The notes under the pieces are model-generated. The model made no database searches and was not told where the DNA came from. It saw only the letters and a program-made list of their open reading frames with translations. A DNA stretch of 64,000 bases from Candidatus Poribacteria bacterium (GTDB lineage Bacteria; Poribacteria; WGA-4E; PCPOR2b). Below are positions 4,519 through 49,362 of this stretch, piece after piece; the first letter of the stretch is position 1; each line of letters starts with the position of its first letter. The stretch covers positions 3,968,001-4,032,000 of the forward strand of contig OZ242351.1 of NCBI GenBank assembly GCA_965208675.1, written 5' to 3'. Made by a program: the position numbers and the translations under genes.

Positions 4519-4541
4519 TAATTACAACCTCCATTACGGTT

Positions 4542-4581: not shown

Positions 4582-4638
4582 CGGGTTTATGCTAACATCA
4601 ACAATGCGACGTTGCTGATATACCTACAAAGCTACAGC

Positions 4639-5430: not shown

Positions 5431-5566
5431 ATGTAAAACCCTCCATATCTGTTTTCCATTAACTTCAGAACGCTAGTTCTGACGATAACAGAGATTCTAC
5501 TTAAATCCAACAATGTTGAAACTTTATTCCTCGTAACAACTATCGCGGCCTACCTTGAGCCAAAAC

Positions 5567-6394
5567 CTATTCCAGAACTTTCAGGTTTGCCCATGTTGTA
5601 GCCGCCTTTCCAGACGGTTCGACAGCAATACCGCCATTTCCGCCTGCGATGTGCGCCATGAGTCCATCGTTCATTAGCGCGTTAATTTCTTCGCCGTCGA
5701 GGACGCCACTAAAAATTGCGAAATCATCAATGGCGCCAGCGAAAGAGATATATTCTTCCCCATGCGTACCTAGCCTGCCGCCGATGTGAAAATTTGCCTC
5801 ACCCGGTATAAAGGCTTTAAAGGCCTGTTGGTTGAGTGCTTCCTCGCCGTTTTTATAAACTGCCATGAATTTCCCAGCGACGCTGTGGATAAATGCCCAG
5901 TGGTTCCATTCGCCGACAGCAGAATCGTCGATACTTACGTCAGCCGTGGGGAAAATACCTGTAAATGGCGTTCCGAATTGCCAATGGACTTTGTTATCCC
6001 AGGGCATGTGCGTTGTTACACGGCCTTGCTCACCAACATGAAGCGGCTCAAAACTGAAAAAGTCTTGATTCCTTATCTTGTCAATTCGCGCCCACGAAAT
6101 AATCGTTATTTCCTCTGTAGGCATAACGTTTCCAAAACCGGTAATCTGGATTGTATCCCCATCGCCCGGAAGACCGGCAGCCATTCCGAACTTCCCGGAA
6201 ATCCATTCGGGTGCTCCGGTTAATTCTCCGTGATAATCATTCCCCGATGAATCGTTGGCGTCGCCATCAAGCAACCAAGCCCCCACAACAGATTCTGGGT
6301 CTTTGAGGGCATCACTTTGCCCTACTAGTATCAATCCGAAAACAACGAAGCTGAAAATACACCCGAAGGCGAATTTTGCTTTGATGTTATACAT
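5567..6394 (-). CDS. Secreted LamG-like protein, copy 3 (diverged paralog)
   Basis: Same architecture; ends AVEPSGKAATTWANLK. Confidence 0.85.
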   Translation of the reverse strand: MYNIKAKFAFGCIFSFVVFGLILVGQSDALKDPESVVGAWLLDGDANDSSGNDYHGELTGAPEWISGKFGMAAGLPGDGDTIQITGFGNVMPTEEITIISWARIDKIRNQDFFSFEPLHVGEQGRVTTHMPWDNKVHWQFGTPFTGIFPTADVSIDDSAVGEWNHWAFIHSVAGKFMAVYKNGEEALNQQAFKAFIPGEANFHIGGRLGTHGEEYISFAGAIDDFAIFSGVLDGEEINALMNDGLMAHIAGGNGGIAVEPSGKAATTWANLKVLE

Positions 6395-6974: not shown

Positions 6975-8012
6975 TTATCCGGTCTCTACCATGACGGGGG
7001 TTTTGGAGAAGGGAATCTGCCGGGGATAATTGACGAGAGGGGCGCCCATACCGTCAAAACTGATTTCGATGCGATCACCGGTTTGGAAGGTCGGCCGATT
7101 GGGGAAGGCGAGTTTCATCGTTCCGAAGAAATGGACATGGACATCCCATGGGCGGCGAAAATGCGAATACTTGAAATGGTGGTCCTCTAGGTTTGCAAGG
7201 CTATGGCTCATATGACTCTCGCCCGTAAGCAATTTGCCGGAATCGTAAAGTATTTCTTCACCCCGTGTGATGCGGCAGCTGCCTTCGATGTCATTGAAAT
7301 CTTTATCCGTGATTAACTCAGGTCCGACAGCGCATACGCGCATTTTAGACGGCGCCAACCAAAGGTAATTCTCTCGTTCCATTGGGTGATCTGCCCATTC
7401 ATTCCCGATCGCAAACCCTATCCGACAAGGAATGCCATCGTCGTCAATCACATAGCAGCCGACGATTTCAGGTTCTTCGCCGCCATCCTCAGTAAAGTCT
7501 GGGATATCAAGAAAGTCGTTGTGGCCCCGCAGGAAGACGCCGGTCCCTTTATAAAACCATTCTGGCTGAACGCCGCGGACACCTGCATCGGGCTTGCCGC
7601 CCTTTAATCCCATCTCGAACATCTTTTCCGAATCGGTCTTAACGGACTCATTTTCTTCATCGTCAGCGATATGCATCTCGGCGCGTTTTTCCATGCTTCC
7701 CATGTGCGTTAAACCCGTACCCGAAATCAAACAGTGGCTTGGGTCTGGATGGTCAATCGGTGGAAGAATCCAGCCATTTGCGTCCCCTTTACGGGCTTTT
7801 AGCAGCTCACTGTATGGCACCACATCAGCCTTGCGCGTAGAAACATCGGCGAGGTACGCACTAATGGTCCTGCGTCTCCGGCGAGCTTCCTGGAAGAGCG
7901 TATGAATGTACCTCCATTCCTTGTTGACGCTGGTCAAGTCAACGATTTTATCATCTTCAATATACCCAATCCGCCTTCCTTTTTCAGATAACCAAAATTG
8001 AATAAGTCTCAT
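6975..8012 (-). CDS. AraD1/GguC family (FAH superfamily) protein
   Basis: ISGTGLTHMGS, QPEWFYKG, DGGEEPE, NYLWLAPSK, HSLANLEDHHFKY, HVHFFGT. Confidence 0.85.
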   Translation of the reverse strand: MRLIQFWLSEKGRRIGYIEDDKIVDLTSVNKEWRYIHTLFQEARRRRRTISAYLADVSTRKADVVPYSELLKARKGDANGWILPPIDHPDPSHCLISGTGLTHMGSMEKRAEMHIADDEENESVKTDSEKMFEMGLKGGKPDAGVRGVQPEWFYKGTGVFLRGHNDFLDIPDFTEDGGEEPEIVGCYVIDDDGIPCRIGFAIGNEWADHPMERENYLWLAPSKMRVCAVGPELITDKDFNDIEGSCRITRGEEILYDSGKLLTGESHMSHSLANLEDHHFKYSHFRRPWDVHVHFFGTMKLAFPNRPTFQTGDRIEISFDGMGAPLVNYPRQIPFSKTPVMVETG

Positions 8013-20560: not shown

Positions 20561-21584
20561 ACAGCGATTGACCTATGCCGACGCGGGGGTATCATTTGAG
20601 GCAAAAGCAGAGGCGTTCAATCGTCTGAAAACACTTTGCCGTTCAACCTACCGTCCGGAAGTTTTAAGCGAAATTGGGAGTTTTGGTGGGCTTTTTGCGC
20701 TCGCCGAATTTGACAAACCAGTGCTTGTGTCAAGCACTGATAGCGTTGGCACAAAACTCAAAATCGCTTTTATGATGGCTGTGCACGATACGGTGGGGTA
20801 CGATATTGTGGCGCACTGTGCCAACGACATCCTCGTACAAGGCGCTGAACCGCTCTTTTTTCTGGACTATATCGGTACCAGCACGCTCCGTCCTGCAGTC
20901 GTCGAGCAAATCGTAAAGGGAATCGCAAAAGGTTGCCGAGAAACCGGCTGCGCGCTAATTGGCGGAGAGACGGCAGAGTTGCCGGATTTCTACGCTGACG
21001 GTGAATACGATCTCGTCGGCACAATAGTGGGGGTCGTCGAGCGTTCCAAGTTGATTACGGGTAGCGAGATTCAACCGGGCGATTGCTTAATCGGTTTGAA
21101 ATCATTCGGATTGCACACCAATGGGTTTTCACTTGCTCGCCATATCCTGTTCGATGTTTGCGGGTATGGCCTCGATCAATACATCCCCGAACTCGGTGTG
21201 ACACTCGGCGAGGAACTGCTCAAGCATCATATAAGCTATGTAAAACCGGTTCTGAATCTGCGGAAGAGGTGGAATGTCAAAGGCATCGCCCACATTACCG
21301 GCGGCGGCTTAGCCGATAACATCACCCGTATTCTACCAAAAAACTGTCGAGCTGAAATCCAAAAGGGATCGTGGGAAATCCCGCCAATCTTCGCCTTTCT
21401 CCAAGAATACGGAAAGGTCGATGAAGCTGAGATGTACCACGTTTTCAATATGGGCATCGGATTGGTATTGGTCATTCCGCTCGATCAAGTCGATTCTGCG
21501 CTCGACGCGCTCAAGGATATGAGTACGTCGCCGTTTCTTATCGGCAAAATACTTCATGGAGAAAAGGAGGTACACATTGTCTGA
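20553..21584 (+). CDS. purM: Phosphoribosylformylglycinamidine cyclo-ligase (AIR synthetase)
   Basis: YADAGV, DSVGTK, GAEPLFFLDY, LIGGETAE, HITGGG, FNMGIG. Confidence 0.97.
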   Translation: MTKQRLTYADAGVSFEAKAEAFNRLKTLCRSTYRPEVLSEIGSFGGLFALAEFDKPVLVSSTDSVGTKLKIAFMMAVHDTVGYDIVAHCANDILVQGAEPLFFLDYIGTSTLRPAVVEQIVKGIAKGCRETGCALIGGETAELPDFYADGEYDLVGTIVGVVERSKLITGSEIQPGDCLIGLKSFGLHTNGFSLARHILFDVCGYGLDQYIPELGVTLGEELLKHHISYVKPVLNLRKRWNVKGIAHITGGGLADNITRILPKNCRAEIQKGSWEIPPIFAFLQEYGKVDEAEMYHVFNMGIGLVLVIPLDQVDSALDALKDMSTSPFLIGKILHGEKEVHIV

Positions 21585-22311
21585 AACACCTATCGAACAA
21601 ACACTTGTCCAAGAATTAACCGCCCTGCTTGAAAAGACAGACTTGCGGGTAATCCTGCGCGCCGTTGCTGATGAACCCGATCCGGATGTTGCCATTTTCT
21701 TGGTGACGCTTCAGCAGGCTTCTCCAACCCTCGCTAACCACGCCTCCCAAATCCTCATCCATCTTCCGGCTGATAAGCAGATTGCTGTCGCTGAGCAGAT
21801 TACAACCACAGATATTGTTGAGTCAGAACGCGTACGGGTAATCCACACGCGCTTAATTGAAAATATAGTAAGTGCGACGAATCAGACCACGGTTCTTGGG
21901 GACGGCAAGTCCAATCTGATTAAACTTCTAGGACGGATGAAGACAGACGATCAGAACCGCCTGCTGGATTCACTGGCCGCAAGGCAACCAGACCTAGTCA
22001 ACGACATTCATGAACGGCTCTTCACATTTGCCGATCTCGCAACACTGAATGATTCGGCGATACAGACAATTTTGCAAGTGCTCGATCCCAGTACCATTGC
22101 GCTCGCCCTTCACAATGCACCTGAAGAGGTGCGTCAAAGGTTCCTTGAGGGCATGTCAGAAGAATTAACAGCCAATGTCGAAGACGAAACAAATCGGTTG
22201 ACCTTTGAACAGACGCAAATCGCCGACACCGCCCGGCAGTCTGTCGTAACCCTCGTCCGAAATTTCGCATCCAAAGGCATGATCTCGACCGATCGAGAAT
22301 CCGAGGAGTAG
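21577..22311 (+). CDS. FliG-like protein (middle and C-terminal domains only)
   Basis: LFTFADLATLNDSAIQTIL..IALAL..APEEVRQRFLEGMS resembles FliG_C; TTG 21577 follows AGGAGG. Confidence 0.7.
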   Translation: MSETPIEQTLVQELTALLEKTDLRVILRAVADEPDPDVAIFLVTLQQASPTLANHASQILIHLPADKQIAVAEQITTTDIVESERVRVIHTRLIENIVSATNQTTVLGDGKSNLIKLLGRMKTDDQNRLLDSLAARQPDLVNDIHERLFTFADLATLNDSAIQTILQVLDPSTIALALHNAPEEVRQRFLEGMSEELTANVEDETNRLTFEQTQIADTARQSVVTLVRNFASKGMISTDRESEE

Positions 22312-33926: not shown

Positions 33927-34108
33927 GGTTCTTGTCGGTTGGGTAGAGCGATCAACCGACCGAATAGGGAGGGATCAACCGAGTGAATAACGAGGGCGAT
34001 AGTCTTATCCGAATGGTTTGCGATAAACCAAAAACTCCGCAATACCCAAAAGCGTTGGCTTTCGCTCCACCACATTACTTACCAAACAATTGATGCATAC
34101 GATCCAAT
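33927..34108 (+). repeat. GTAG-REP/REPIN-like element E1 (right end truncated)
   Basis: GTTCTTGTCGGTTGGGTAGAGCGATCAACCGACCGAAT...CCCAAAAGCGTTGGCTTTCGCT. Confidence 0.8.
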
Positions 34109-34555
34109 TTCTAAATACCCCCCTGATAAGGGGGGCTAGGGGGTTGCCACTCTTTTTTATTCGGATAGCGCTTTTCAGATTAAAGCTAGCCAATCCATAA
34201 GCCATCCAAGGGAATTGTCAGCCTCTACCCCATTGTAGGCGGTGAATCTTGCCCCGCAAAGTAGTAGGCACACTCCGTGTGCCGTAATCTTCTTTGAAAT
34301 CACACTACCCATACAATACACCATAACCGCGCAATCTAGCGATTGAATAGGGCGCAATAGTCGTCGGCTCCTGTATCCTGTAGGAGCGATCTCCGAATCG
34401 CGGCACTTATTTGAAACCGAGTTTTTTTCTTCAAAACTCGGTTTCTCCTAATCCTAATTGCAGTCCGAATCTCAGATTTAATAGATTCTAACGTGAATTC
34501 GGCCTGAACAATGTCTCAGACGAAATCGTAATCTATCCGACAGGAGTTGAATACT
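34108..34555 (+). repeat. About 450-bp upstream module (copy at 37797..38241; 3' part also at 35614..35798)
   Basis: Contains CCCCTGATAAGGGGG, GTAGGCACACTCCGTGTGCC, GTAGGAGCGATCTCCGAATCGCGG and the hairpin GAAACCGAGTTTT..AAAACTCGGTTTC. Confidence 0.85.
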
Positions 34556-35311
34556 ATGCCAATCAAAACTTTCCGATTCGTGATTGTTCTCTTGGGAACC
34601 GTCGCTGTGTTTGTGCGAATGTGTATCGCTGGTACGTGGATAGACGATTTCAGTGACCGAACCCTTCGAGATTGGGAAGGCGGTCTAATAAATGACGAGG
34701 TTAGCGCAGGTGTTGTTGGTGGACACTTCTATTATAGAGGAAAAAATGAACGAGCAGGTTATTATATGAAAAATTGGGCATTAGGGAAAATCCAAGATTT
34801 TTCGCTCGAGTTGAAGTTTATGGTTAGAGACCTCCGAGTCCCAGAGCGGTGTTCTTGGACTATTAATTATGACTCATTTAACGTAGAAACGCTGAATCGC
34901 AACGGGCTGATGGGCTTTTTGTGGTATCCCAATTTTGAGAAACCCAACATTATGGATGTTACAATTGATCGCTTCGAGCGGGAGGGGCACGCCTGGATTC
35001 CACAGACCGCTGCAATAGACAGCTTCGCATTCGAAGAAAAGGTCTGGTACACATTGCGGATTGAACGCGAAGGAAACCAATACACTTTTTCGATGGGCGA
35101 TTTGATTTTATTCGCAGAAGATGATACAGTGCAGATGGGTACGATTGAGCTGAGATTTTATGAACGGAATACCATCTGGTTGGATGATTTTACAGTGACC
35201 GGCCCCGATGTTCCGAATGGCGGACCTGGCTTTTTGGGAGTCAATCCATTGGCAGAACAATTAACGACGATGTGGGGAAAGCTGAAAGCACAGAACTGGC
35301 AGTTCTTGTAG
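34556..35311 (+). CDS. Secreted beta-sandwich (ConA/DUF1080-like) protein, paralog P1
   Basis: Signal peptide, GTWIDDFSD, WYTLRIEREGN, IWLDDFTVTGPDVP, C-terminal VNPLAEQLTTMWGKLK; AGGAG RBS. Confidence 0.8.
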   Translation: MPIKTFRFVIVLLGTVAVFVRMCIAGTWIDDFSDRTLRDWEGGLINDEVSAGVVGGHFYYRGKNERAGYYMKNWALGKIQDFSLELKFMVRDLRVPERCSWTINYDSFNVETLNRNGLMGFLWYPNFEKPNIMDVTIDRFEREGHAWIPQTAAIDSFAFEEKVWYTLRIEREGNQYTFSMGDLILFAEDDTVQMGTIELRFYERNTIWLDDFTVTGPDVPNGGPGFLGVNPLAEQLTTMWGKLKAQNWQFL

Positions 35312-35615
35312 GTTGGGTAGAGCGATCAACCGACCGAATAGGGAGGGATCAACTGAGTGAATAGCGAAGGCGATAGTCTTGACCGGCAACCAAAACGACT
35401 ACCAAACGAAAAATCCGTCCCATTTACGCGAAAACTCCGCCGTTTATCATGGATTAAATTATCATCGTATTGACGCTATCACTAGCCTATCCAAACGTCC
35501 CAAAAGCGTTGGGTTCGCTACACCTTAACAATTTCAGCACATATTCCAATACCGAAATCCATTGGACATTATTCGCGTCTTTCATTTAATCCGCTTAACC
35601 CAACCTACAAAAACT
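35301..35615. mobile_element. REPIN/MITE-like element E2
   Basis: Terminal IRs AGTTCTTGTAGGTTGGGTAGAGCG ... CGCTTAACCCAACCTACAAAAACT. Confidence 0.8.
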
Positions 35616-35798
35616 GTATCCTATAGGAGCGATCTCCGAATCGCGGTACTCATTTGAAACCTAGTTTTTTCTTGAAAACTCGGTTTCTCCTAATCCTAAT
35701 TGCAGTCCGATTCTCAGATTTAATAGATTCTAGCGTGAATTCAACCTGAACAATGACACAGACGAAATCGTAATCTTTTCGATAGGAGTTGAAATACT

Positions 35799-36542
35799 AT
35801 GCCAATCAAAACTTTCCGATTCATGGTTGTTCTCTTTGTAACCGTCGTTTTGTTTGGACGAATGTGTATCGCCGGTACGTGGATAGACGATTTCAGTGAC
35901 CCAACCCTTCGAGATTGGGAGGGCAGTCGAATAAATGTCGGGTTTAACACAGGTGTTGTTGATGGACACTTCTATTATAGAGGAACAAATCAACACGTTA
36001 ATGATATGGAGAATATTGCATTAGGGAAAATCCAAGATTTTTCGCTCGAGTTGAAATTTATGATTAGAAACCTCCGAGTTCCAGAGTATAGTTTTTGGAC
36101 TATTGAATATTCTTCATTTAACGAAGAAACGTGGAATTACGACGGGATTATGCAATTTTTGTGGTATCCCCAAGGGGAACCCAAAATTAACATTATGGAT
36201 GTTACAATTGATTGCTTCGAGCAGGAGGGGGACGCCTTTTTTCCACAGACCGCTGCAATAGACAGCTTTGCATTCGAAGAAAAGGTCTGGTACACGTTGA
36301 GGATTGCTCGCGAAGGAAACCAATACACTTTTTCGATGGGCGATGTTAGCTTATTCACAGAAGATGATACAGTGCCTATGGGGACGATTGAGTTGTCCTT
36401 TCATGGACGGAATACCATCTGGTTGGATGATTTTATCGTGACCGGCCCCGATGTGCCGAATGGCGGTCCAGGCTATTTGGGAGTCAATCCATTGGCAGAA
36501 CAATTAACGACGATGTGGGGAAGGCTCAAAGCACAGAACTGA
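35799..36542 (+). CDS. Secreted beta-sandwich protein, paralog P2
   Basis: Colinear with P1 and P3. Confidence 0.8.
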   Translation: MPIKTFRFMVVLFVTVVLFGRMCIAGTWIDDFSDPTLRDWEGSRINVGFNTGVVDGHFYYRGTNQHVNDMENIALGKIQDFSLELKFMIRNLRVPEYSFWTIEYSSFNEETWNYDGIMQFLWYPQGEPKINIMDVTIDCFEQEGDAFFPQTAAIDSFAFEEKVWYTLRIAREGNQYTFSMGDVSLFTEDDTVPMGTIELSFHGRNTIWLDDFIVTGPDVPNGGPGYLGVNPLAEQLTTMWGRLKAQN

Positions 36543-36651
36543 CCGAATCCGTTTTCCCGTCTTCCGAGCTTGCTATTACCCACAAGTCTCTGGAGTCAAA
36601 CGCCGTCTATGTTGGGGCTAAGAACGACTGTTCATTTCGGTATGGTGTAAA

Positions 36652-36706
36652 CTGTGGGAAGGACATCCCTGTCCCGATAATCAGGGCTAGGAAGCCCTTC
36701 CCACAG
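36652..36706. repeat. Inverted REP doublet of a second family
   Basis: CTGTGGGAAGGACATCCCTGTCCCGA-taa-TCAGGGCTAGGAAGCCCTTCCCACAG. Confidence 0.65.
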
Positions 36707-36715
36707 GAGCTTCAC

Positions 36716-37012
36716 AGTTCTTGTAGGTTGGGTTGAGCGGACTTCACCAAATGATGTACAATTTCACGTTTTGCTCTAGAAGTCTAACGACGTCCAAGAT
36801 CCGATGGACAGAGCGTAACCCAACGATCAACCGAGCGAATAGCGAAGGCGATAGTTTTATCCGAATGGCTTCCGATAAACCAAAAACTCCGCAATACCCA
36901 AAAGCGTTGGGTTCGCTACACCTTAACAATTTCAGCACATATTCCAATACCGAAATCCATTGGACATTTTTGCGTCTTACATTTAATCCGCTTAACTCAA
37001 CCTACAAAAACT
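36716..37012. mobile_element. REPIN/MITE-like element E3 (two complete REP arms)
   Basis: GTAGGTTGGGTTGAGCGGA-70nt-AGCGTAACCCAAC ... GTTGGGTTCGCT-69nt-TCCGCTTAACTCAACCTAC. Confidence 0.8.
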
Positions 37013-37013
37013 T

Positions 37014-37757
37014 ATGGAAAGTACATCAATGCCCACCCGTGTTTTAGTGAATGGAGCCTCAGGTAGAATGGGACAGGTTGCGATAGAGGCAGTTAATCTT
37101 GATGGCGGTCTGGAACTGGCGGGAACGGGACATCGAGGAGACGACCTATTATCCCTGATTGAGATAACTAATCCCGATGTTGTGTTGGACTTTACAACAG
37201 CAACGGTTGTCTTTGAAAACACCGCAACTATCATCAAAGCAGGCGTGCACCCCGTAATCGGAACAAGTGGCTTGTTGGAAGCCCAAGTTGAAAAGTTGGT
37301 TGCGTTGTGTGAACAGCAGCGACTAGGAGGCGTAATCGTGCCGAACTTTTCTATTTCTGCTGTGTTGATGATGAAGTTTGCAAAGCATGCGGCGCGTTAC
37401 TTTGACAGAGTTGAAATAATTGAGCGTCATCATGATGAGAAAAAAGATTCGCCTTCGGGCACAGCCATAAGAACCGCGGAGATGATGGCAGAGGATATTT
37501 CTTCACGAGATGATATTGAGGAGGAAGCAACGATTCCGGGGGTGAGAGGTGCGCTCTATCAGGGGATTTCAATACACTCGATACGGTTGCCCGGTCTGGT
37601 TGCGCATCAGGAGGTTCTTTTTGGCGGACCGGGCCAATTGCTAACCATAAAAAGTGATCTTATCAACCGAGATGCATTTAGTCCGGGGATTTGCCTTGCC
37701 TGCAAGGAAGTCGTAAACTTAAACGAATTGAAATGCGGTCTGGAACAATTTTTATAA
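37014..37757 (+). CDS. dapB: 4-hydroxy-tetrahydrodipicolinate reductase
   Basis: GASGRMG, DFT, VIGTSG, PNFS, EIIERHHDEKKDSPSGTA, HSIRLPG. Confidence 0.96.
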   Translation: MESTSMPTRVLVNGASGRMGQVAIEAVNLDGGLELAGTGHRGDDLLSLIEITNPDVVLDFTTATVVFENTATIIKAGVHPVIGTSGLLEAQVEKLVALCEQQRLGGVIVPNFSISAVLMMKFAKHAARYFDRVEIIERHHDEKKDSPSGTAIRTAEMMAEDISSRDDIEEEATIPGVRGALYQGISIHSIRLPGLVAHQEVLFGGPGQLLTIKSDLINRDAFSPGICLACKEVVNLNELKCGLEQFL

Positions 37758-37758
37758 G

Positions 37759-37797
37759 AGTTCTTATAGGTTGGGTAGAGCGATCAACCGACCGAAT
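37759..37797 (+). repeat. Element E4 (left arm only), starting 2 nt after the dapB stop
   Basis: AGTTCTTATAGGTTGGGTAGAGCGATCAACCGACCGAAT. Confidence 0.8.
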
Positions 37798-38241
37798 TTT
37801 TAAATTCCTCCCTGATAAGGGGGGCTAGGGGGGTTGCCACTCTTTTTTATTCGTTTATCGTACTTCAGAATGAAGTTCCCCGATCCATAAGCCGTCGAAG
37901 GTCATTGTCAGACGCTACCCCATTGTAAGAGGGGCATCTTCCCCCGCAAAGTAGTAGGCACACTCCGTGTGCCGTAATCTTCTGTGAAATCACACTACCC
38001 ATTCACCGCAACCGCGCAATCAAGCGATCGAAAAGGGCGCAATAGTTGTCGGCTCCTGTATCCTGTAGGAGCGATCTCCGAATCGCGGCACTTATTTGAA
38101 ACCGAGTTTTTTTCTTCAAAACTCGGTTTCTCCTAATCCTAATTGCATCCCGATTCTCGGATTTATTAGATTCTAACGTGAATTCAGCCTGAACAATGAC
38201 ACAGACGAAATCGTAACCCTTTAGACAGGAGTTGAAATACT
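37797..38241 (+). repeat. Second copy of the upstream module
   Basis: Colinear with 34108..34555. Confidence 0.85.
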
Positions 38242-38988
38242 ATGCCAATCAGAATATTCCGATTCATGATTGTTCTCTTCGTAACCGTCTTTGTGTTTGG
38301 ACGAATTTGTATCGCCGGGACGTGGATTGACGATTTCAGTGACCGAACCCTTAGAGATTGGGGGGGCGGTCGAAGAAATCACGAGTTTAGCACAGGTGTT
38401 GTTGGTGGACACTTCTATTATAGAGGGATAGTTGAACAAGCATTTTGTCATATGGAGAATAGGGGATTAGGGAAAATCCAAGACTTTTCGCTCCAGTTGA
38501 AGTTTATGGTTAGAAACCTCCGAGACCTACGGCAGGGTTTTTTGACTATTGATTATTCTTCATTTAACGAAGAAACGTGGAATACCGACGGGATTATGCA
38601 ATTTTCGTGGTATCCCCAAGGGGAACCCAAAATTAACATTATGGATGTTACAATTGATTGCTTCGAGCAGGAGGGGGACGCCTTTTTTCCACAGACCGCT
38701 GCAATAGACAGCTTTGCATTCGAAGAAAAGGTCTGGTACACGTTGAGGATTGCTCGCGAAGGAAACCAATACACTTTTTCGATGGGCGATGTTATATTAT
38801 TCGCAGAAGATGATTCAGTGTCGATGGGTACGATTGACCTGTTATTTTTTGGAAGGTGTACCGTCTGGTTGGATGATTTTACCGTGACCGGCCCCGATGT
38901 GCCGAATGGCGGGCCTGGCTTTTTGGGAGTCAATCCATTGGCAGAACAATTAACGACGATGTGGGGAAAGCTGAAAGCACGGAACTGA
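38242..38988 (+). CDS. Secreted beta-sandwich protein, paralog P3
   Basis: Colinear with P1 and P2. Confidence 0.8.
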   Translation: MPIRIFRFMIVLFVTVFVFGRICIAGTWIDDFSDRTLRDWGGGRRNHEFSTGVVGGHFYYRGIVEQAFCHMENRGLGKIQDFSLQLKFMVRNLRDLRQGFLTIDYSSFNEETWNTDGIMQFSWYPQGEPKINIMDVTIDCFEQEGDAFFPQTAAIDSFAFEEKVWYTLRIAREGNQYTFSMGDVILFAEDDSVSMGTIDLLFFGRCTVWLDDFTVTGPDVPNGGPGFLGVNPLAEQLTTMWGKLKARN

Positions 38989-38989
38989 C

Positions 38990-39234
38990 AGTTCTTGTAG
39001 GTTGGATAGAGCGATCAACCGACCGAATAGGGAGGGATCAACTGAGTGAATAACGAGGGCGATAGTCTTTTCTTGCCTTATCCGTATCGCTTCCGATAAA
39101 CCAAAAGCTCCGCGATACCCAAAAGCGTTGGGTTCGCTACACCTTAACAATTTCAGCACATATTCAAATACCGATATTCATTGGCCATTTTTCGCGTCTT
39201 TCATTTAATCCGCTTAACCCAACCTACAAAAACT
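38990..39234. mobile_element. REPIN/MITE-like element E5
   Basis: AGTTCTTGTAGGTTGGATAGAGCG ... CGCTTAACCCAACCTACAAAAACT. Confidence 0.8.
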
Positions 39235-39338
39235 CGGTGTCTCCTAACCAACGTCCGCCTTTCCCGCTCAATTTCCCACCTAAAGTCCAACCTAGACCTT
39301 TACCCAATTGTCGGTTCAACGGTTGCCCAAAAAGGCAC

Positions 39339-39367
39339 TTGATAATTGTGTTGCTTTAAGCTACAAT
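39339..39367 (+). promoter_or_regulatory. TA operon promoter with overlapping imperfect palindrome
   Basis: TTGATA-17 nt-TACAAT; ATTGT...ACAAT inverted repeat. Confidence 0.6.
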
Positions 39368-39377
39368 ATAGGAAATC

Positions 39378-39635
39378 ATGTATACGGTTCGCTATCGAGC
39401 AGGCGTAGCAAAGATGCTCCAGCGTATGCCGCGGAACGTCGCTAAAACCGTTGTACGTAAGATTGACCAACTTGCTGAGTCGCCTTATGCGCCGAACAAA
39501 AATGTAACGCGTTTAAAGGGTGAACGAGGATACCGGCTCAGAGTAGGTGATTGGCGTGTGTTATATGAGATTCGGGACAATAACCTCGTCATCGAAATTA
39601 TCAAAATCGGACCAAGAGGAGGCGTGTATCAATGA
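39378..39635 (+). CDS. RelE/ParE family toxin
   Basis: LKGERGYRLRVGDWRVLY..IGPRGGVY. Confidence 0.9.
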   Translation: MYTVRYRAGVAKMLQRMPRNVAKTVVRKIDQLAESPYAPNKNVTRLKGERGYRLRVGDWRVLYEIRDNNLVIEIIKIGPRGGVYQ

Positions 39636-39991
39636 ATGTTGAGACCGTCGAAAGACAAGGAGTGGAATATGTCCTTGTACCGAGAGTACAGTACAATCAG
39701 CTCTTAGAAGATGCGGAGATGCTGAGAGACATTAGAGAGTTCCGTGAAGCAAAAGACGCTGGCGAGGAAACCTACCCGAGTGAAGTGATTAACCGGCTGA
39801 TTCTAAATGAGGAGAGTCCAATACGGGTTTATCGAGACTATCGGGGACTCACGCAGCAGCAACTCGCTGATAAGTGCGGGATTCAGCGCGCATATTTAGC
39901 AGAGATTGAAACCGGGCGCAAGGCCGGTTCCATTAAAACTTTGAAGACAATCGCCGCAGCGCTTGGCGTTGAACTAACCTCCATCTCATGA
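39632..39991 (+). CDS. XRE-family HTH antitoxin
   Basis: RGLTQQQLADKCGIQRAYLAEIETG; ATGA overlap with the toxin. Confidence 0.9.
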   Translation: MNVETVERQGVEYVLVPRVQYNQLLEDAEMLRDIREFREAKDAGEETYPSEVINRLILNEESPIRVYRDYRGLTQQQLADKCGIQRAYLAEIETGRKAGSIKTLKTIAAALGVELTSIS

Positions 39992-40165
39992 GGTGGAAAG
40001 TTTAATCGCTCTGAATTGGGAAAAGGTCGGGGATTCTCTCGTCTTTGCCGATTGGATTGGGTCGATCAAAAAGCCGGTAAGCCTGTCGCAACTGTCCACC
40101 CTTCATATTCGAGGATACGCGAAAGATTAAGATGAATTCCTTCGCAGTTATAGAAAGGTGCAATA

Positions 40166-40402
40166 ATGAGCCAAATTGTCGTAAATCCAGAAATTCTGGG
40201 TGGGAAACCAATTATCGAAAGCACTCGCCTCAGTGTAGAGCATGTGTTAGGGTTACTCGCGAGCGGCATGTCCCACACAGAGATCTTTGAAGCCTTCCCA
40301 GAGTTGAATGAAGAAAACCTTCAATTGGTGCTCGCGTATGCATCTCGGGCACTCCGTGATGAGGTGATAATCGATCTCCCAATCACCCATGGCGGGGTTT
40401 GA
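40166..40402 (+). CDS. DUF433 antitoxin
   Basis: IVVNPEILGGKPIIESTRLSV..GMSHTEIFEAFPEL. Confidence 0.9.
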   Translation: MSQIVVNPEILGGKPIIESTRLSVEHVLGLLASGMSHTEIFEAFPELNEENLQLVLAYASRALRDEVIIDLPITHGGV

Positions 40403-40404
40403 CA

Positions 40405-40473
40405 ATGCTACTCCCGCTTGTGACTGACATTAACATCACAGTGCCCGTCAGACAGCGACTGAATATGGATTAA
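40405..40473 (+). pseudogene. Possible N-terminal remnant of a DUF5615 PIN-like toxin
   Basis: MLLPLVTDINITVPVRQRL* begins 2 nt after the DUF433 stop and resembles the MxxLxDENI start of DUF5615. Confidence 0.4.
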
Positions 40474-40488
40474 ACCTGATTGAGAGCA

Positions 40489-40848
40489 AGTTCTTGTAGG
40501 TTGGGTAGAGCGGATTTATCCAAATCGGCGTCATTAACAAGTTACCGCTCCAAATTTCGAATGGTGTTTGGTAGAAATTCACGTGAAGCGAAACCCAACT
40601 CTTTTGAAAACTCCGGCAACCAAAACGACGACCAAACGAAAAACCCGTCCCATTTACCCAATCACTCCGTCGTTTTTCATTTTTCCTGTCGTCATCGTAG
40701 TGACCTTATCCCTCGTCTCCCGGGGCGTCCCAAAAGCGTTGGGTTTCGCTAGACGTGAGTTAACACCAACCATGTTGCATTTCTGGCGGTAAGAACTATC
40801 GCCCTCCCTATTCGGTCGGTTGATCGCTCTACCCAACCTACAAAAACT
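40489..40848. mobile_element. REPIN/MITE-like element E6 (two complete REP arms)
   Basis: GTAGGTTGGGTAGAGCGGA-72nt-AGCGAAACCCAAC ... GTTGGGTTTCGCT-74nt-CGCTCTACCCAACCTACAAAAACT. Confidence 0.8.
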
Positions 40849-40866
40849 GTCCAAAATAGAGCGTGA

Positions 40867-40895
40867 TTGACACCAAATTGCTTCTGACGTATAAT
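40867..40895 (+). promoter_or_regulatory. Consensus sigma70 promoter
   Basis: TTGACA-17 nt-TATAAT. Confidence 0.8.
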
Positions 40896-40916
40896 TGGTG
40901 ACTCTACTGCGGCAAT

Positions 40917-41900
40917 ATGTGCAGCGCACTCACCAATTATGGGAAGCAGATTATGGAATCTTGTGGCGTTTCAAGCGGGGACCTTGAATCCGCGCTCACG
41001 CATCTTTCCGAACACGGATACACCGTCATAGAAGGCGTGCTTAGCGGCGATGAAATCCAGCACTACCGAAGTTTTGCGGCGGAACTCTTTGAACGAGAAC
41101 GCGAGCATCCTTTCGAGCCGGAAGACGGTCCGGCGTTGCCGGCAGATGCCGAGATTGAAGCTTATCTGAAGGAGAGTTACCTAATCAGCACGGCGGAACA
41201 GGCGCGGCTCATGCGGCGAATCCGCCATACACGCGCTCAAAACCGCGGCACGCCGTGGCCCGTCGCCCCCTCAGACGTGGTTAAGAATTTCCTTCACCTC
41301 CCGACCCTGTTCGATCATGACAAGTCGCAGCGTATCTGGAACTTGGTCAACAAAGCCCCGGATTTCGGAAAACTGATAGAACATCCGGCGGTGCTTTCGT
41401 TGGCGCGGGCGGTTCTTGGGGACGATTGCGTGCTCGCCGACTGCAGCGCCACCAGTATTGGAGCGCGTACCGGCGAAGGCGGGGCATGGCATGTGGATGT
41501 GCCGCTCGGTCAGTTGCCGGAACCGCTGCCGGACTTTCCGCTGACCATCCAGAACGCTTGGATGCTAGATGCGTTTACAACGCGCAACGGGGCAACCCAG
41601 GTTGTTCCCAAAAGCCATCGCACCCGCAGAAAGCCCGCATGGGGCGCGCAGCAGGAGGACGGGAAGATTCTGACGGGACCTGCCGGCTCGGTGGCAATCT
41701 GGTTGTCAAACACATGGCACCGATCGGGGCCCAACGCAACCGGCAATCCCCGCTGGGCTATCCTCTGCTATTACTCCCGTTCATGGATAAAGCCGTTTAC
41801 CGATTTTACATCGTGCCTAGACCCGGCAATCGCGAAAACCTTCTCACCTGGTTTGCGGTATCTTCTAGGATTTTCCGCCAACGCCCCCGTGCGAGGATAG
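40917..41900 (+). CDS. Phytanoyl-CoA dioxygenase (PhyH) family Fe/2OG enzyme
   Basis: HGYTVIEGVL, WHVD, NGATQVVPKSH, GPAGS, WHRSGPN; start 40917 or 40953. Confidence 0.9.
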   Translation: MCSALTNYGKQIMESCGVSSGDLESALTHLSEHGYTVIEGVLSGDEIQHYRSFAAELFEREREHPFEPEDGPALPADAEIEAYLKESYLISTAEQARLMRRIRHTRAQNRGTPWPVAPSDVVKNFLHLPTLFDHDKSQRIWNLVNKAPDFGKLIEHPAVLSLARAVLGDDCVLADCSATSIGARTGEGGAWHVDVPLGQLPEPLPDFPLTIQNAWMLDAFTTRNGATQVVPKSHRTRRKPAWGAQQEDGKILTGPAGSVAIWLSNTWHRSGPNATGNPRWAILCYYSRSWIKPFTDFTSCLDPAIAKTFSPGLRYLLGFSANAPVRG

Positions 41901-42025
41901 ATGGAAATTTTATTTATCCATTTTAACTAGAAAACCACGAACTGTTTCATTGGCTGCTGATTGGGAAAATCTTGACTATACCACGGATTGATTTGGAAAT
42001 GCCAAATTCAGGGAGGAACTCAAAA

Positions 42026-42313
42026 TTGGAGACGCAAGTTATTCAATACCCAACTGAAATTCTGTCGGCCCTCGGAAAAGAGGCTGAAGTATTTGAAAAA
42101 GAAGCCCGTTTGTTATTGGCGTTGAAATATTACGAAACTGGCAAACTCAGCACCGGACTCGCAACTCAACTCGCTGGTGTGCCGCGCACCACCTTTATAT
42201 TTCTTCTTGGCAGACACGGTCTGTCGCCCTTTGGAGAAACACCTGAAAGGCTCAAAAAATCTCTCGAAAATGCAAGAAAAGCTAGTAATCGCCAACCCAC
42301 ACGGAGCCGATGA
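42026..42313 (+). CDS. UPF0175 family antitoxin
   Basis: EARLLLALKYYETGKLSTGLATQLAGVPRTTF; TTG 42026 follows GGGAGG. Confidence 0.85.
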   Translation: METQVIQYPTEILSALGKEAEVFEKEARLLLALKYYETGKLSTGLATQLAGVPRTTFIFLLGRHGLSPFGETPERLKKSLENARKASNRQPTRSR

Positions 42314-42470
42314 TGTCCGAACGTTCCGCTATTCGAAACCCCATGACCAAATACGCGGTTGGCATTGGCTGGAAGTCATTAGCCTTCTCCCTTACCAAGG
42401 GGGAGTTAGAGGGGGGTTTGGCACTAATCACCTATGCTAAATCTGATAACCAATTTCGACCATGAATTTA

Positions 42471-42788
42471 TCAATATGTCAATATTTTCGCAGTTTCTCG
42501 TGACGATTTCCGAATTCCCACCTCACAGTTCAAGCGTTTCAGAAACCGCATGAGCCGCTCAACGCTATAGTAAGAAAGTTTGGCAGCTTTAAGGCGGGCA
42601 ATCTCGGGCTGTTTTACACCAAGCAACTTAGCTGCCACTACTTGGGTTAGCTGGCGTTCCTCCAAAATACGGAAGATTTCCGCTCCTAACTCCGCTTTTA
42701 ACAGTTCTTCTTCGGCAACCTCATCAGGAAAACCTAAATCCTTAAAAAAGTTTCCGCTGCTTTGTTCGACCTTGATTCTACTGCTCAT
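42471..42788 (-). CDS. XRE/HTH_37 (HigA-like) antitoxin
   Basis: SSGNFFKDLG, LTQVVAAKLLGVKQPEIARL, YSVERL. Confidence 0.88.
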   Translation of the reverse strand: MSSRIKVEQSSGNFFKDLGFPDEVAEEELLKAELGAEIFRILEERQLTQVVAAKLLGVKQPEIARLKAAKLSYYSVERLMRFLKRLNCEVGIRKSSRETAKILTY

Positions 42789-43175
42789 GCGCCTATTTCT
42801 GCCTCCTTCGCTCGCCTAAAATTTCGTCAAATCTAAATTTCATTATAACTAATCAGCTATATCCAAACAAGTGCCAAAGTGTTAATCCGAAACTTTTCTT
42901 TTTATCATTTCCCCTGAATCTAGCAAGGTGCAAAATTTCATAGTAAGGTTTCATGTAACCTCCCGTATAAATTGCAAAGAGTTCAGTCATAGCCTGAGTT
43001 CTCACGCCTTTTTTGTCCGTAGGGAATTTGCGTTTGTCCTCGGAAAACTATGAAAACTATGAAATTCTGTATGAGGCAAAAAGATAATTTACGCATATTA
43101 TCGCTTTCGTCGAATACTCCTTCCCCTTACAAAATTCACCATTACCCGCATCTCAATGGAAGCGAATCATACCAA

Positions 43176-45648: not shown

Positions 45649-48600
45649 TTACAACTCCGCGACAACCTCCATATTCATACGGTGTTCAGGCTTCCGCTGT
45701 TTTGTCGAGAGCAACCTGTAATTGAATCTCAACAATAGGTCTGTCACCTTGTGAACCTTGTAACTCGCGGTGGCTCTGATTTCGTGGCTGATTCCCTCGT
45801 AGAAGTTGTATCGCGCAAAAGGGATGCCGCCTTCGCTGGTGCCGTGGCCGATTCGGTATTTGAAATCAATCCGGCCCTTGCGGATAAAGGAGTAAATTAA
45901 CTGATTTTCTACCGAGAGAGTCCGTGTCTGAGCCTCCGGTTCGTTATCAAGGTGCTCCAAATCCGAAGTAATTCCGTGGCTGCCAACCACGCCAAACCGC
46001 ACCGCACGGCTGAGTTCGTAACGGAGTTCCATTGAATTAAGTCGTTCATATTGCATGAGATCTGAGATTTGCTCCGTCGCCTTGCCTTCCAGATTCAATT
46101 GGGTGAATTCATCTCGCTCGCGGCGAACCTCCCACCTCGCACGCAATGAGAACTTCGCCGTTGGATTAATCGTCATGTGAATGTCCCAATCTCTCCCGCG
46201 GCGTCGGCGTTCGCGGCTGTTGATGCGTTTGTTGAGGAGCTGGTTAGTGTTAAACCCAACATCTAAATTCAACGCCGGTGATGGAGAGAAGTCAAGCCGG
46301 TACCGCTGAACCCTTCGCCCAAAGATTGTCTGTTCATTCTGTAGGTTTCGTAATAGGAGCAGTGAAGATGGATCGGAAATTTCCTGTTCTTCCGCGATGC
46401 GCACTTGAAACTCCCCGCGGATAGCATTTGCTAACCATTCAAACCGATCGCGCATCGTTGTTGGCGGCTTAGGTAAGGTATCGGGTAGAATCGGGTTAAT
46501 CGGTGCACCGCCCCCGCCTGGCGGCTCTGCAGGCTGCTTCGATAAAGTTTCCCCGCTAGCGTTCCGAAATGTATCGAGGATACTGGTAGCGGAGTCTCGT
46601 GTTCGGCGCCGGCGCGCAAACATCCGGCGCGGCTGAACGCGAACTCGAAACTTTACATCAATAGCAGAAACAGGCTTGTCATCAACGTTCTGGATAAATC
46701 TGATATAATTCCCCTCCTCAAAATCCTCGCGGTAATGCAGTTCATCAATTTTGACGTAATGACCCTCACCCGGCGGGATTTCTCTGCCCGTCAGCGGGTG
46801 AATATTTGTGTATATTTCCCGCCGCTCTGTCGCGAGTGTCTTATCGAGTTCATAGACCATCTCGCCATCTAACGCGCGGTTGAATGGTGTCAGGCGCAGG
46901 TTAATATCCGCCAATTGCGTCGTTGAATCAGCGCCTTCCGCTCGCTGTGACTCATACAAACGCCGAGACAGATTCGCCGCAAAGTTTGTCCATTTTCGCG
47001 GCCGTGAGAAGAATCCAATCGTCCACGTTTTCGCGCTCGTCATCTGCTTCCAGTCCGAAAAGGCGAGAGTCTCCTCATCAACCACAATCAGCGGCTCTTT
47101 GTCAAATGCTTCCTCAATGGAGTATTCCGTATTGATGGATGCCCACTGAAAATCGGCAAGATTAATCCGGCCGGTGGAGATGTTTCGCTTCCGGTTCAGG
47201 TTCTGTGCATCAGTTGTATTCAGATCGGTTGACTCCAACTGTTCGATTGAGGCATTAAAATTAAATGGGCGAATCCGCTGGAAGATACTCCACATCGTCC
47301 GGTCCTTGCGAAATTGGTCTTGTCCTCTGACCTTTGACGTGCTGCTTCGGTAATCGCTTCTCACGCGGGGTAGGATTGGACGTTTCACTAAGCCGCCCTG
47401 CGGTTTGAATTCAAATCCCCCGTTGAAATTGTTGCGGATAGTTACGCCGTCGGACACATTCCCCTCGCGCTCGCCAGGGTCGAGAGCAGAGGAAACTCCG
47501 GCTCCAGTCAAGCCGTCAATCGCAGATTGAATCTTAAAACGCTCCTCCGTTCGTCCTATTCCTGAATCAAGATTCAACCAACCAAACGGTCTAAACTGCA
47601 GATCGAAATCTAGCGATCTTTCGTCAGGAGATTGCCCGCCGCCAGATGCGCTGAGCAAATACAAATCATCAAATCTTTCTTCAGAATACTGCTCCTCATA
47701 GCGGAAGCGTGTACGGTTTGTGCTCGATGCGCCGACTGGCACAAACTCGGCATCAAGCGATCGGGCATCTAAATTCAGTTGCAGTTTGTTGCTCGACGAA
47801 TTTGCCAGAATTTTCCACGCCCGACTAAGCACCTTCGCATCTCGATTGGAAAATGTGTTCTCATCGAGTGCGCTAAAAGCCATCTGTCCCTCTACCGATG
47901 TCCAATCTGTCGGGTTGAGGCGCCCCTCAATACCCCATACCGTGTGCCGCTGCGGCGCCGTAAGCGAGTTCCCATCGGAGTCCAGCTCATTTTTTTTCAA
48001 ATCCTCAATATCTTGTTCGTTGAGGATTATGAACGCGTTTTCGGGGTCATTCAGATCCGATTCAACGGCGTATGCGAGGCCAACTGCTGCCCGCCCGTCC
48101 GGCAGCAGATTGAATAACCCGCTCGCGCCCTGTAGATTCCGCTGATAAGCAAGGTCTTCAGGGATAAATTCAAAATCAATGCGGATGCTGTCGTTGCTGG
48201 TAATCAGATGTTTGCTCGTGAATTCGATGATGGGGTCGCCGTAATCGCGTATAATATAGTCATGGTTTTCACCGCGCCGCATCCGTTCGCCGTTAAGCCA
48301 AACAATTTCCGTCCCCGCTTTCACAATGACAAATTCGCCATCCACGTCAATTCGATATTCGCTGCGCCCCTCCTCTGCCCGTATGGTCTTGCTCGCGGAT
48401 TCCCCTTTCGGGATGCTGCTTGGAATTATATGGAATGACCCCCACTTGAAGTTTCCTTCGACCTGGACGCCTTCTAGCGCCCTTGGAAAGAAAATGAACT
48501 CGGAATTTCCGAGCGATCCCTCATAATCGCCCAAGGTCGCTGTCACATTCGGGCTTGTAATCCGAATCAGTTTCTGGTCGATGTCTTGGATGTCCTCTGT

Positions 48601-49362
48601 CGTGCCCTCCGGCTGGATTGGCAGGTCTTGATCCGAAAGCAACGCGATGACGCTCACGTTTTCCGAGACTTTGCCGTCAACGCTAATCCGCAATTCTTGG
48701 TTTTGAGACAACGCTCGTCCGCTGCCGACTGAAACTCCAAACGTCTGCGTTCCCGTGACTTGCAGGGGAGGCTGCGCGGTTTCTGTGGACGGTTGCCGTG
48801 CGAGATCGGGCTGAAACCCAAATTTGCTTTCCGCGGGCGGTTGCTCGGTTAACGGTTGTTTTGGTCGAAACAGATTGCGTTTGTACCGTTTCTTGATTTC
48901 AAAGGGCAGGGCGTGGTAGGTTATGTTGACGATAGCATCCGGCGGGTAGTCGTTCAGAAGGGCGACAGTTCCAGCGTGATAATCAATTCGGTAGTCCTCG
49001 TTTTTCGCGATTTTTTCGCCATTGACGGTAACTGTTTCGCTATCCCGGACGATCGGAAGGTGCTTTAAGGAAAAGGGATTGGACAGGTCTTTAAACCTCC
49101 CTGTCTCCGACTTCTGCAGAAGAGAAATGGTCGGAAGTTGGAGGTCGCTGGTTAAGGGTTTGGTAGGGTTTGCCTCTTCCGCGCCAGAAGCCGTAGCGCT
49201 GAAATAACTTGATAGTAGCAGGCATATCAACGGCAGAAGGTTTCGGAGAAAATATACGCAAAATTGTGTGGCTCGAGACGGTATAAAAGGGATTGGAGTA
49301 TCTGATTGAGTGGTTATAAAAAACTGATTGTACGCCGCCACATCTCGTTTCCCTTTCTCCAA
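45649..49362 (-). CDS. Large outer-membrane beta-barrel protein of unknown function
   Basis: Signal-like segment, two V..NG...DY.I.DY motifs, LSDQDLPIQPEG, amphipathic beta-strand C-terminal half; true start uncertain. Confidence 0.7.
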   Translation of the reverse strand: MEKGKRDVAAYNQFFITTQSDTPIPFIPSRATQFCVYFLRNLLPLICLLLSSYFSATASGAEEANPTKPLTSDLQLPTISLLQKSETGRFKDLSNPFSLKHLPIVRDSETVTVNGEKIAKNEDYRIDYHAGTVALLNDYPPDAIVNITYHALPFEIKKRYKRNLFRPKQPLTEQPPAESKFGFQPDLARQPSTETAQPPLQVTGTQTFGVSVGSGRALSQNQELRISVDGKVSENVSVIALLSDQDLPIQPEGTTEDIQDIDQKLIRITSPNVTATLGDYEGSLGNSEFIFFPRALEGVQVEGNFKWGSFHIIPSSIPKGESASKTIRAEEGRSEYRIDVDGEFVIVKAGTEIVWLNGERMRRGENHDYIIRDYGDPIIEFTSKHLITSNDSIRIDFEFIPEDLAYQRNLQGASGLFNLLPDGRAAVGLAYAVESDLNDPENAFIILNEQDIEDLKKNELDSDGNSLTAPQRHTVWGIEGRLNPTDWTSVEGQMAFSALDENTFSNRDAKVLSRAWKILANSSSNKLQLNLDARSLDAEFVPVGASSTNRTRFRYEEQYSEERFDDLYLLSASGGGQSPDERSLDFDLQFRPFGWLNLDSGIGRTEERFKIQSAIDGLTGAGVSSALDPGEREGNVSDGVTIRNNFNGGFEFKPQGGLVKRPILPRVRSDYRSSTSKVRGQDQFRKDRTMWSIFQRIRPFNFNASIEQLESTDLNTTDAQNLNRKRNISTGRINLADFQWASINTEYSIEEAFDKEPLIVVDEETLAFSDWKQMTSAKTWTIGFFSRPRKWTNFAANLSRRLYESQRAEGADSTTQLADINLRLTPFNRALDGEMVYELDKTLATERREIYTNIHPLTGREIPPGEGHYVKIDELHYREDFEEGNYIRFIQNVDDKPVSAIDVKFRVRVQPRRMFARRRRTRDSATSILDTFRNASGETLSKQPAEPPGGGGAPINPILPDTLPKPPTTMRDRFEWLANAIRGEFQVRIAEEQEISDPSSLLLLRNLQNEQTIFGRRVQRYRLDFSPSPALNLDVGFNTNQLLNKRINSRERRRRGRDWDIHMTINPTAKFSLRARWEVRRERDEFTQLNLEGKATEQISDLMQYERLNSMELRYELSRAVRFGVVGSHGITSDLEHLDNEPEAQTRTLSVENQLIYSFIRKGRIDFKYRIGHGTSEGGIPFARYNFYEGISHEIRATASYKVHKVTDLLLRFNYRLLSTKQRKPEHRMNMEVVAEL

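Follow-up and report, generated by a model that had tools for sequence, protein, structure and literature searches.

Three paralogous genes, here called P1, P2, and P3, stand in a tandem array within the window analyzed, a 64,000-nucleotide stretch of the genome of a Candidatus Poribacteria bacterium (contig OZ242351.1, positions 3,968,001 to 4,032,000). A first-pass annotation had described their products as three secreted paralogs in which constant frameworks alternate with antibody-like hypervariable patches. The genes are as follows.

34556..35311, + strand: P1, 251 amino acids, a probable exported jelly-roll (CBM66/DUF1080-like) protein, its fold taken from the P2 model
35799..36542, + strand: P2, 247 amino acids, the paralog used for structure modelling
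38242..38988, + strand: P3, 248 amino acids, the remaining paralog

Each gene is full-length and has an AGGAG ribosome-binding site. P1 is 77% and 76% identical to the other two copies, and P2 and P3 share 81% identity, so that the description as three paralogs stands; all six invariant blocks and all four variable patches quoted in the annotation are present as written.

Pairwise Nei-Gojobori counts, with the framework taken as the rest of the mature protein outside the quoted patches, give proportions of nonsynonymous (pN) and synonymous (pS) differences of 0.32-0.35 and 0.14-0.25, respectively, for the patches and of 0.04-0.09 and 0.11-0.15 for the frameworks, in which 24 of 177 third positions vary. 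These counts show that amino-acid change is concentrated in the patches and that synonymous sites in the frameworks do vary. The earlier statement that the frameworks are nearly identical even at third codon positions is thus not borne out, framework pS lying near that of the patches. The notion of a constant framework holds insofar as amino-acid change is focused on the patches, but part of the similarity is due to gene conversion, the longest identical stretch being a tract shared by P2 and P3 that is described below. The annotation had overlooked a further zone of variation, the fifth (P2 residues 110-150), as well as the conserved C-terminal tail and the dapB gene between P2 and P3, both described below. 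The quoted patches themselves have dN/dS (ω) values of 1.35-2.9, which are not relied on here because the patches were picked for being variable.

For the codon analysis, relatives were taken from GTDB genomes, where four of 46 candidate stretches (L001 to L004), all of them from Ca. Poribacteria, encode such proteins. GY94-type site models were fitted to 223 mature codons of six genes, namely P1-P3, both copies of L001, and the copy of L002, and the six L003/L004 genes were excluded for being too divergent. The likelihood-ratio test (LRT) statistic is 47.6 for M1a/M2a, with 14% of the sites at ω 4.95, and amounts to 50.3 for M7/M8 and 46.8 for M8a/M8. With four segment-specific trees it becomes 52.1 (11.5% of the sites at ω 6.4), and it is 21.0 (p=3e-5) when double and triple nucleotide hits are allowed, the largest value reached in 32 neutral mosaic simulations (4-16 segments, one tree) being 10.7. 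P1-P3 alone give an M1a/M2a LRT of 22.6 (p=1e-5). In all three control sets from the window the LRT is at most 0.55 (ω 0.10 for the TonB-dependent receptor upstream of the array, 0.21 for the DUF4249 gene, and 0.19 for a triad of LamG genes). Diversifying selection on the P1-P3 family, which the annotation had proposed, is therefore supported, with an ω>1 class that survives segment trees, multiple hits, and mosaic simulations, and with patches whose ω is not at or below 1.

The structure of mature P2 was predicted with AlphaFold2 from a 61-row alignment (predicted local distance difference test score 85.5, predicted template modelling score 0.82) and consists of 14 strands and, at the C-terminus, a helix of low confidence. 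The structure search returns concanavalin-A-like jelly rolls, with YesU on top (Z 17.4, root-mean-square deviation (rmsd) 3.0, 177 residues aligned), and L-type lectins, GH16 proteins, and DUF1080 proteins are likewise among the matches, the last including 3hbk (Z 13.8, rmsd 3.6, 166 aligned) and 4jqt (Z 15.1). The first Foldseek match is CBM66 (E 2e-8). A profile of the wider family (75 rows) finds the DUF1080-type BT3469 at 4e-19 and CBM66 at 5e-15, and 58 of the 75 members match PF06439 at E<=0.001; P2 itself scores 19.5 bits with PF06439, under the gathering cut-off of 26.8, and P1 and P3 are unmatched at E<=0.01. As modelled on P2, the P1-P3 fold is thus a jelly roll of the concanavalin-A type with kinship to CBM66 and DUF1080, in agreement with the lectin-like β-sandwich that had been anticipated. 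A homodimer prediction scored 0.00, which is no answer, and is counted neither way.

The strands of the model were assigned to sheets from DSSP and the known jelly-roll topology, which is consistent with the motif mapping given below, and inward and outward positions were told apart by hydrophobic alternation. Among the 22 close proteins (>=64% identity, of 61 aligned), the entropy of outward positions is 1.45 bits on the concave (front) sheet vs 0.36 bits on the convex (back) sheet (p=1e-6), and pairwise identity averages 48% vs 86%. Fixed-class codon models give ω 2.2 for front-outward and 0.36 for back-outward positions, with 0.60 for the core, 1.0 for loops, and 0.37 for the C-terminal tail; front-outward ω exceeds 1 with p=6e-5, or 1e-3 with multiple hits. 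Among the 18 sites with a posterior of at least 0.8, six are front-outward, ten lie in loops, most of which connect or border front strands, two are inward, and none is back-outward. In a distant pair from L003, the sole independent check of the face labels, there are 18 nonsynonymous differences on the front and one on the back. The variable residues thus cluster, in the predicted structure, on the concave sheet, where DUF1080 enzymes have their active site, rather than being dispersed over unconstrained loops. In P2 they fall into the following zones.

35919..36020, + strand: variable zones 1-2 (residues 41-51, 63-74), selected sites 44, 51, 66, 68, 73
36078..36188, + strand: variable zones 3 and 5 (residues 94-130), comprising two strands in the centre of the concave sheet with their loops, selected sites 95-97, 103, 105, 112, 114, 119, 126, 130
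36390..36413, + strand: variable zone 4 (residues 198-205), where sites 200 and 202 are the equivalents of the DUF1080 Q-x-H active-site pair

The variable sites are alternating β-strand positions plus flanking loops. What remains of the term "antibody-like" is an analogy, in that a constant scaffold carries one variable surface, but on a jelly roll without an immunoglobulin (Ig) fold or loops resembling complementarity-determining regions. Actual kinship with antibodies was considered and rejected, the Fab matches (E 0.13-0.91) being at chance level and the model being a two-sheet jelly roll. On the opposite sheet, the outward hydrophobics M88, F186, and W208 of P2 do not vary among the 22 close homologues, which suggests that the convex surface is covered by the protein's own tail or by a partner.

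The concave sheet was also compared with the channel of BT2, a DUF1080 enzyme, whose conserved residues E103, N134, E164, Q166, Q273, and H275 are described in bioRxiv 10.1101/2024.03.25.586180. Placed by motif through an alignment with BT3469 and the profile map, with an inferred step from residue number to motif, they correspond to P2 positions ~69, 99, 119, 121, 200, and 202, with the least certainty for 69 and 99. At these positions P1/P2/P3 have Y/D/H, S/F/F, G/Q/Q, L/L/S, R/S/L, and Y/H/F, the Q-x-H pair (200, 202) being replaced by R-x-Y, S-x-H, and L-x-F, respectively. The mapped positions rank among the family's most variable ones, and conservation on the front face does not exceed 64% at any position across the 61 homologues; for these two reasons an enzymatic role is unlikely, and the Poribacteria proteins automatically named "3-keto-disaccharide hydrolase" are probably not enzymes.

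Besides point mutation, segments have been exchanged among the copies, a process that the first-pass annotation overlooked. P2 and P3, which are 90% identical overall at the nucleotide level, are identical over 188 nucleotides in which P1 differs at 22 sites and by one codon indel.

36161..36348, + strand: P2 side of the P2/P3-identical gene-conversion tract (188 nucleotides, P2 codons 121-184)
38607..38794, + strand: P3 partner of the tract, coordinates computed from codon positions

The second L001 copy equals P1 over 113 nucleotides (codons 36-73, patches 1-2) and is P3-like thereafter (p<0.0002), the switch point lying inside the conserved LGKIQDFSL block. Triplet tests give p<0.05 in 10 of 60 cases, a pairwise homoplasy index (PHI)-type test yields p=0.0005 for 22 proteins, and segment trees disagree because of the exchange.

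The leaders point to export of P1-P3 by the Sec pathway: a hydrophobic segment ends in C-I-A/G-T-W, and in P1 a signal peptide is predicted at residues 1-25, as judged by inspection. A lipoprotein was considered and rejected, also by inspection, Cys23 being S or G in several homologues and fitting position -3 of a signal peptidase I site. At the other end, close to the C-terminus, the proteins share a tail motif, which in P2 is located as follows.

36483..36539, + strand: conserved C-terminal tail V-N-P-x3-Q-L-T-T-M-W-G-x-L-K, a low-confidence helix outside the domain

A WGxLK-type tail ends 87 of 148 newly listed homologues, and 70 of the 104 that are 210-275 amino acids long. Within the window it occurs in six of the 378 reading frames examined, namely P1-P3 and the LamG triad. 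P1-P3 have no NCBIfam match at E<=0.05, and the tail matches no NCBIfam or Pfam model; an Atlas search with the tail alone gives a best score of 0.84 with unnamed clusters, which serves as a lead only. The tail is probably a sorting or docking tag at the cell envelope. The LamG triad is a second tandem array (3727-6394, - strand) of exported LamG (PF13385) proteins with a TTWGxLK-type tail, two of which have near-identical mature regions but differing signal peptides; unlike P1-P3, the triad is under purifying selection.

The C-terminal sorting domain of type IX secretion cargo comprises roughly 70 amino acids. P1-P3 resemble such cargo in combining a signal peptide with a conserved C-terminal element that also occurs on unrelated passenger domains, including the LamG triad, but the tail here has only ~18 amino acids, and a TIGR04183-type domain is not matched in P1-P3. 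Repeat proteins of Poribacteria are described as carrying this type IX C-terminal domain, TIGR04183 (PMC3909097), and detection of Poribacteria SprA peptides is reported in 10.64898/2026.10.20.760564.

As far as they are named, the relatives come from Ca. Poribacteria. In a protein search, 69 of 187 candidates are relatives, the named match being Ca. Poribacteria, a profile search yields 285 representatives at E<=0.001, and the Atlas neighbours are mostly Poribacteria clusters with automatic names from PF06439. At the shared locus, after the TonB-dependent receptor and DUF4249 genes, the copy number is three in the window, two in L001, and one in L002, and the second L001 copy carries a 1-nucleotide frameshift, which may be genuine or due to faulty assembly. 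Distant copies are also present in L003 (five) and L004 (one), in a genomic context other than that of the window. A homologue that is 57% identical (P0024) may represent a fourth, more diverged copy within the source genome. Longer fused forms were found in none of 635 candidates, which is weak evidence. No description of the family or the tail was found in the literature searched, the main Poribacteria pangenome paper and supplementary tables excepted, and a term search met no mention of laminin-G or concanavalin-type families in the available text of PMC8546597, PMC5087111, PMC6081418, PMC3909097, and 10.64898/2026.10.20.760564.

The array is flanked by genes for the TonB-dependent receptor and DUF4249 and for ParE and helix-turn-helix (HTH) proteins, and it also encloses dapB. 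Its further features are listed here.

34371..34555, 35614-35798, and 38056-38241, + strand: upstream non-coding module of 185 nucleotides, one per gene, duplicated with the gene
35302..35617, no strand: repetitive extragenic palindromic (REP)-like GTAG palindromic repeat module after P1, with related copies at 33928, 36716, 37759, 38991, 39209, and 40802
37014..37757, + strand: dapB (4-hydroxy-tetrahydrodipicolinate reductase), between P2 and P3, with a likelier start at 37032

The upstream modules are about 91% identical (7-8% divergence), and the longer upstream regions of P1 and P3 (34100-34555 and 37789-38241) match at 88%. Promoter and terminator scans are at chance level (11 vs 8.8 expected and 4 vs 5.9, respectively). 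The spacers between the genes are composed of REP-like repeats, which we infer to be a recombination substrate. The whole interval 33928-40850 is dense in GTAG-type REP-like palindromes, some of them inverted doublets flanking spacers of 250-300 nucleotides, as is also observed in L001 and L002.

The dapB product matches TIGR00036 with 196 bits (cut-off 122). The gene also follows the second copy in L001 and is absent from the L002 locus, and it is probably an unrelated passenger within the array. Its homologues form one close cluster at 95%, followed by 72% and then <=64%, and the named matches belong to SAR324, Delta- and Gammaproteobacteria, with no Poribacteria among the 120 listed of 846. 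Given its absence from the L002 locus, dapB may have been acquired laterally. A functional tie of the array to the upstream TonB-dependent receptor and DUF4249 was considered and found unsupported, the L003/L004 copies adjoining ABC-transporter genes instead.

In L001, two open reading frames (ORFs) of 270 and 297 amino acids (3980-5682) are inserted between DUF4249 and the first paralog; they have weak HTH and IS1-transposase matches and resemble an unclassified insertion element. In L002, a different, distantly related-looking protein with a TTWG tail (7206-7883) occupies the position of P2, which suggests that the locus serves as a landing site for proteins with such a tail. Directly after the array, at 39378-39991, are a ParE/RelE-like toxin and an HTH antitoxin, followed at 40100-42800 by more small HTH or toxin-antitoxin-like ORFs and a PhyH dioxygenase. 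Farther away in the window, a 1237-amino-acid protein with a leader, no Pfam match, and a beta-barrel-like C-terminus (45649-49362, - strand) is a candidate large outer-membrane or secretion component. A lone FliG-like protein (21556-22311) is encoded amid genes of purine synthesis, none of the other proteins scanned being flagellar, and an 816-amino-acid WD40 repeat protein built of 126-nucleotide repeats (11175-13625, - strand) is of the eukaryote-like kind reported for Poribacteria.

With a little more confidence than doubt, we read P1-P3 from their sequences as exported, non-catalytic binders whose groove has been diversified under selection and recombined between copies. A CBM66/DUF1080-type jelly roll would act here as a stand-alone binding protein, exported by its predicted Sec signal peptide and sorted to or docked at the cell envelope by the short amphipathic tail that is common to many Poribacteria proteins. 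The conserved convex sheet, core, and tail provide the constant scaffold, on which the concave groove, the substrate site in the enzyme relatives, is shown by the statistics to be rewritten repeatedly by positively selected point mutation. Tandem duplication of the gene with its upstream module would create copies that exchange segments via the conserved blocks, by homologous recombination or gene conversion, and so recombine groove variants, while some copies break; exchange and copy-number change are directly visible at the locus. The outcome would be a small, turning-over repertoire of binding specificities, for which the fold and the lifestyle suggest, as the likeliest ligands, variable glycans or glycoproteins outside the cell, from the sponge matrix or from microbes nearby. 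More doubtful is an extension of this scheme to the whole genome, in which exported single-domain jelly-roll binders with the WGxLK tail could together form a germline variable-receptor system by which strains keep altering their recognition of host glycans, neighbouring microbes, or phage.

Several points weigh against the binder reading. The codon tests rest on six genes only, with site posteriors from naive empirical Bayes, and sites 66-68 and 126-130 adjoin indels and may be misaligned. The core ω of 0.60 is high and implies generally weak constraint, and loops, whose class has ω 1.0, hold more than half (10/18) of the best-supported sites. The face labels stem from strand assignment, hydrophobic alternation, and topology, and were set after the variability table had been seen. 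The groove has no conserved aromatic or polar residue, which is unusual for a lectin of a fixed sugar class. As for recombination, only two of the 60 triplets pass the Bonferroni correction, and the within-window triplet gives p=0.10.

A further point is that sequence cannot separate a diversifying binder from an escaping target. If P1-P3 were envelope proteins whose exposed face evades phage receptor-binding proteins or host immune receptors, the identical selection signature would be expected, and both the front faces, which differ in 22 of the 22 close homologues by chemically unrelated replacements, and the back face, which retains its exposed hydrophobics as if covered, fit such a role. 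We nevertheless regard it as unlikely, given that variation falls on the groove in which the enzyme relatives hold their ligand, that surface exposure is only hypothetical here, and that several differing copies would fit a repertoire better than one hidden receptor. Immunity arrays, too, resemble the present tandem paralogs, and it seems improbable, though conceivable, that P1-P3 form an orphan array of periplasmic immunity proteins or inhibitors whose groove neutralises fast-evolving toxins or enzymes of competitors. The array does consist of exported paralogs in tandem that recombine and have a variable interface, beside toxin-antitoxin genes and mobile debris, but none of the 43 window proteins scanned is a cognate secreted toxin, no Pfam or NCBIfam immunity family is matched, and the fold is of a carbohydrate-binding type. 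It is quite improbable that the pattern reflects relaxed constraint after recent duplication and gene conversion, with drift and tolerant surfaces in place of positive selection. Whole-gene ω is 0.78-0.87, about half of the sites are at ω=1, as are the loops, the second L001 copy is frameshifted, conversion has occurred, and multi-nucleotide hits reduce the LRT from 52 to 21; however, ω>1 withstands the segment trees, multi-hit models, and mosaic simulations, the opposite sheet is conserved at its exposed residues, and the distant L003 pair repeats the pattern, so that this explanation is already weakened.

The PF06439 matches of the wider family, the Atlas clusters named accordingly, and the richness of Poribacteria in glycoside hydrolases reported in PMC6081418 would suit diverged carbohydrate-active enzymes, of the DUF1080 lyase/hydratase or GH16-like type, that are shifting their substrate specificity. 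We find this highly improbable, as P1-P3 disagree even with one another at the equivalents of catalytic and metal positions and no groove residue is invariant. The GH16 motif E-[ILV]-D-[IVAF]-[VILMF](0,1)-E is absent on inspection of the alignment, the strand reading LMGFLWY, IMQFLWY, and IMQFSWY, and no Gfo/Idh/MocA oxidoreductase or TIM-barrel lyase lies next to the array. The relation to the 3-keto-alpha-glucoside 1,2-lyase/hydratase family (BT2/AL2; 3hbk, 3imm, 4jqt) comprises the jelly-roll fold, detectable profile homology, and an exported single domain, but P1-P3 differ in being hypervariable at active-site and metal positions, in scoring below the Pfam cut-off, in having no nearby pathway partners, and in carrying the WGxLK tail. 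The CBM66 of Bacillus subtilis levanase SacC (4b1m) is a homologous non-catalytic β-sandwich, from which P1-P3 differ as stand-alone ORFs with 12-13% identity, a likeness known from fold and profile; CBM66 is described as a module appended to GH32 enzymes (PMC12678895). To targets of a diversity-generating retroelement (DGR), which a lectin-like scaffold with hypervariable codons might bring to mind, we give practically no weight: no template copy of any patch occurs in the window, where only the three genes match one another, no reverse transcriptase is among the 43 proteins scanned, and the changes extend over codons 41-205, include indels, and comprise all substitution types, many of them G/T, C/T, and C/G.

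Bacterial surface families diversified by conversion and selection include Neisseria opa and pilE/pilS, Borrelia vls, Anaplasma msp2, and Helicobacter bab/sab. P1-P3 share with them conserved blocks around variable segments, segment exchange between paralogs, and an excess of amino-acid change at exposed sites, but the fold is another one, and here three complete, expressible-looking genes are found in an uncultured, mostly sponge-symbiont lineage. Segmental conversion among paralogs is also the hallmark shared with cassette antigenic variation (vls, pilS, msp2), which has a single expression site and silent partial cassettes, whereas P1-P3 are three complete ORFs, each with ribosome-binding site, leader, and upstream module; no silent cassettes or phase-variation repeats were seen at the array. 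A concave sheet or groove is also the variable surface of receptors such as the major histocompatibility complex (MHC) and the lamprey variable lymphocyte receptors. Like these and antibodies, P1-P3 combine a constant scaffold with one variable surface built from sequence-distant segments; unlike them, they have no Ig or leucine-rich repeat fold and few germline copies per locus, with no evidence of somatic or programmed diversification. By the features tested, P1-P3 are outside cassette systems, DGRs, GH16, DUF1080 enzymes, and Ig receptors.

Diversification by selection together with gene conversion is a known theme, and it is the scaffold, the lineage, and the tail that appear new. Poribacteria are abundant, uncultured sponge symbionts, and the family bears on the question of how they recognize the host matrix, other microbes, or phage. 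The proteins are small and well folded, with few selected groove residues, so that their specificity is directly testable, and the tail, for which there is no family model, may mark an export or docking route.

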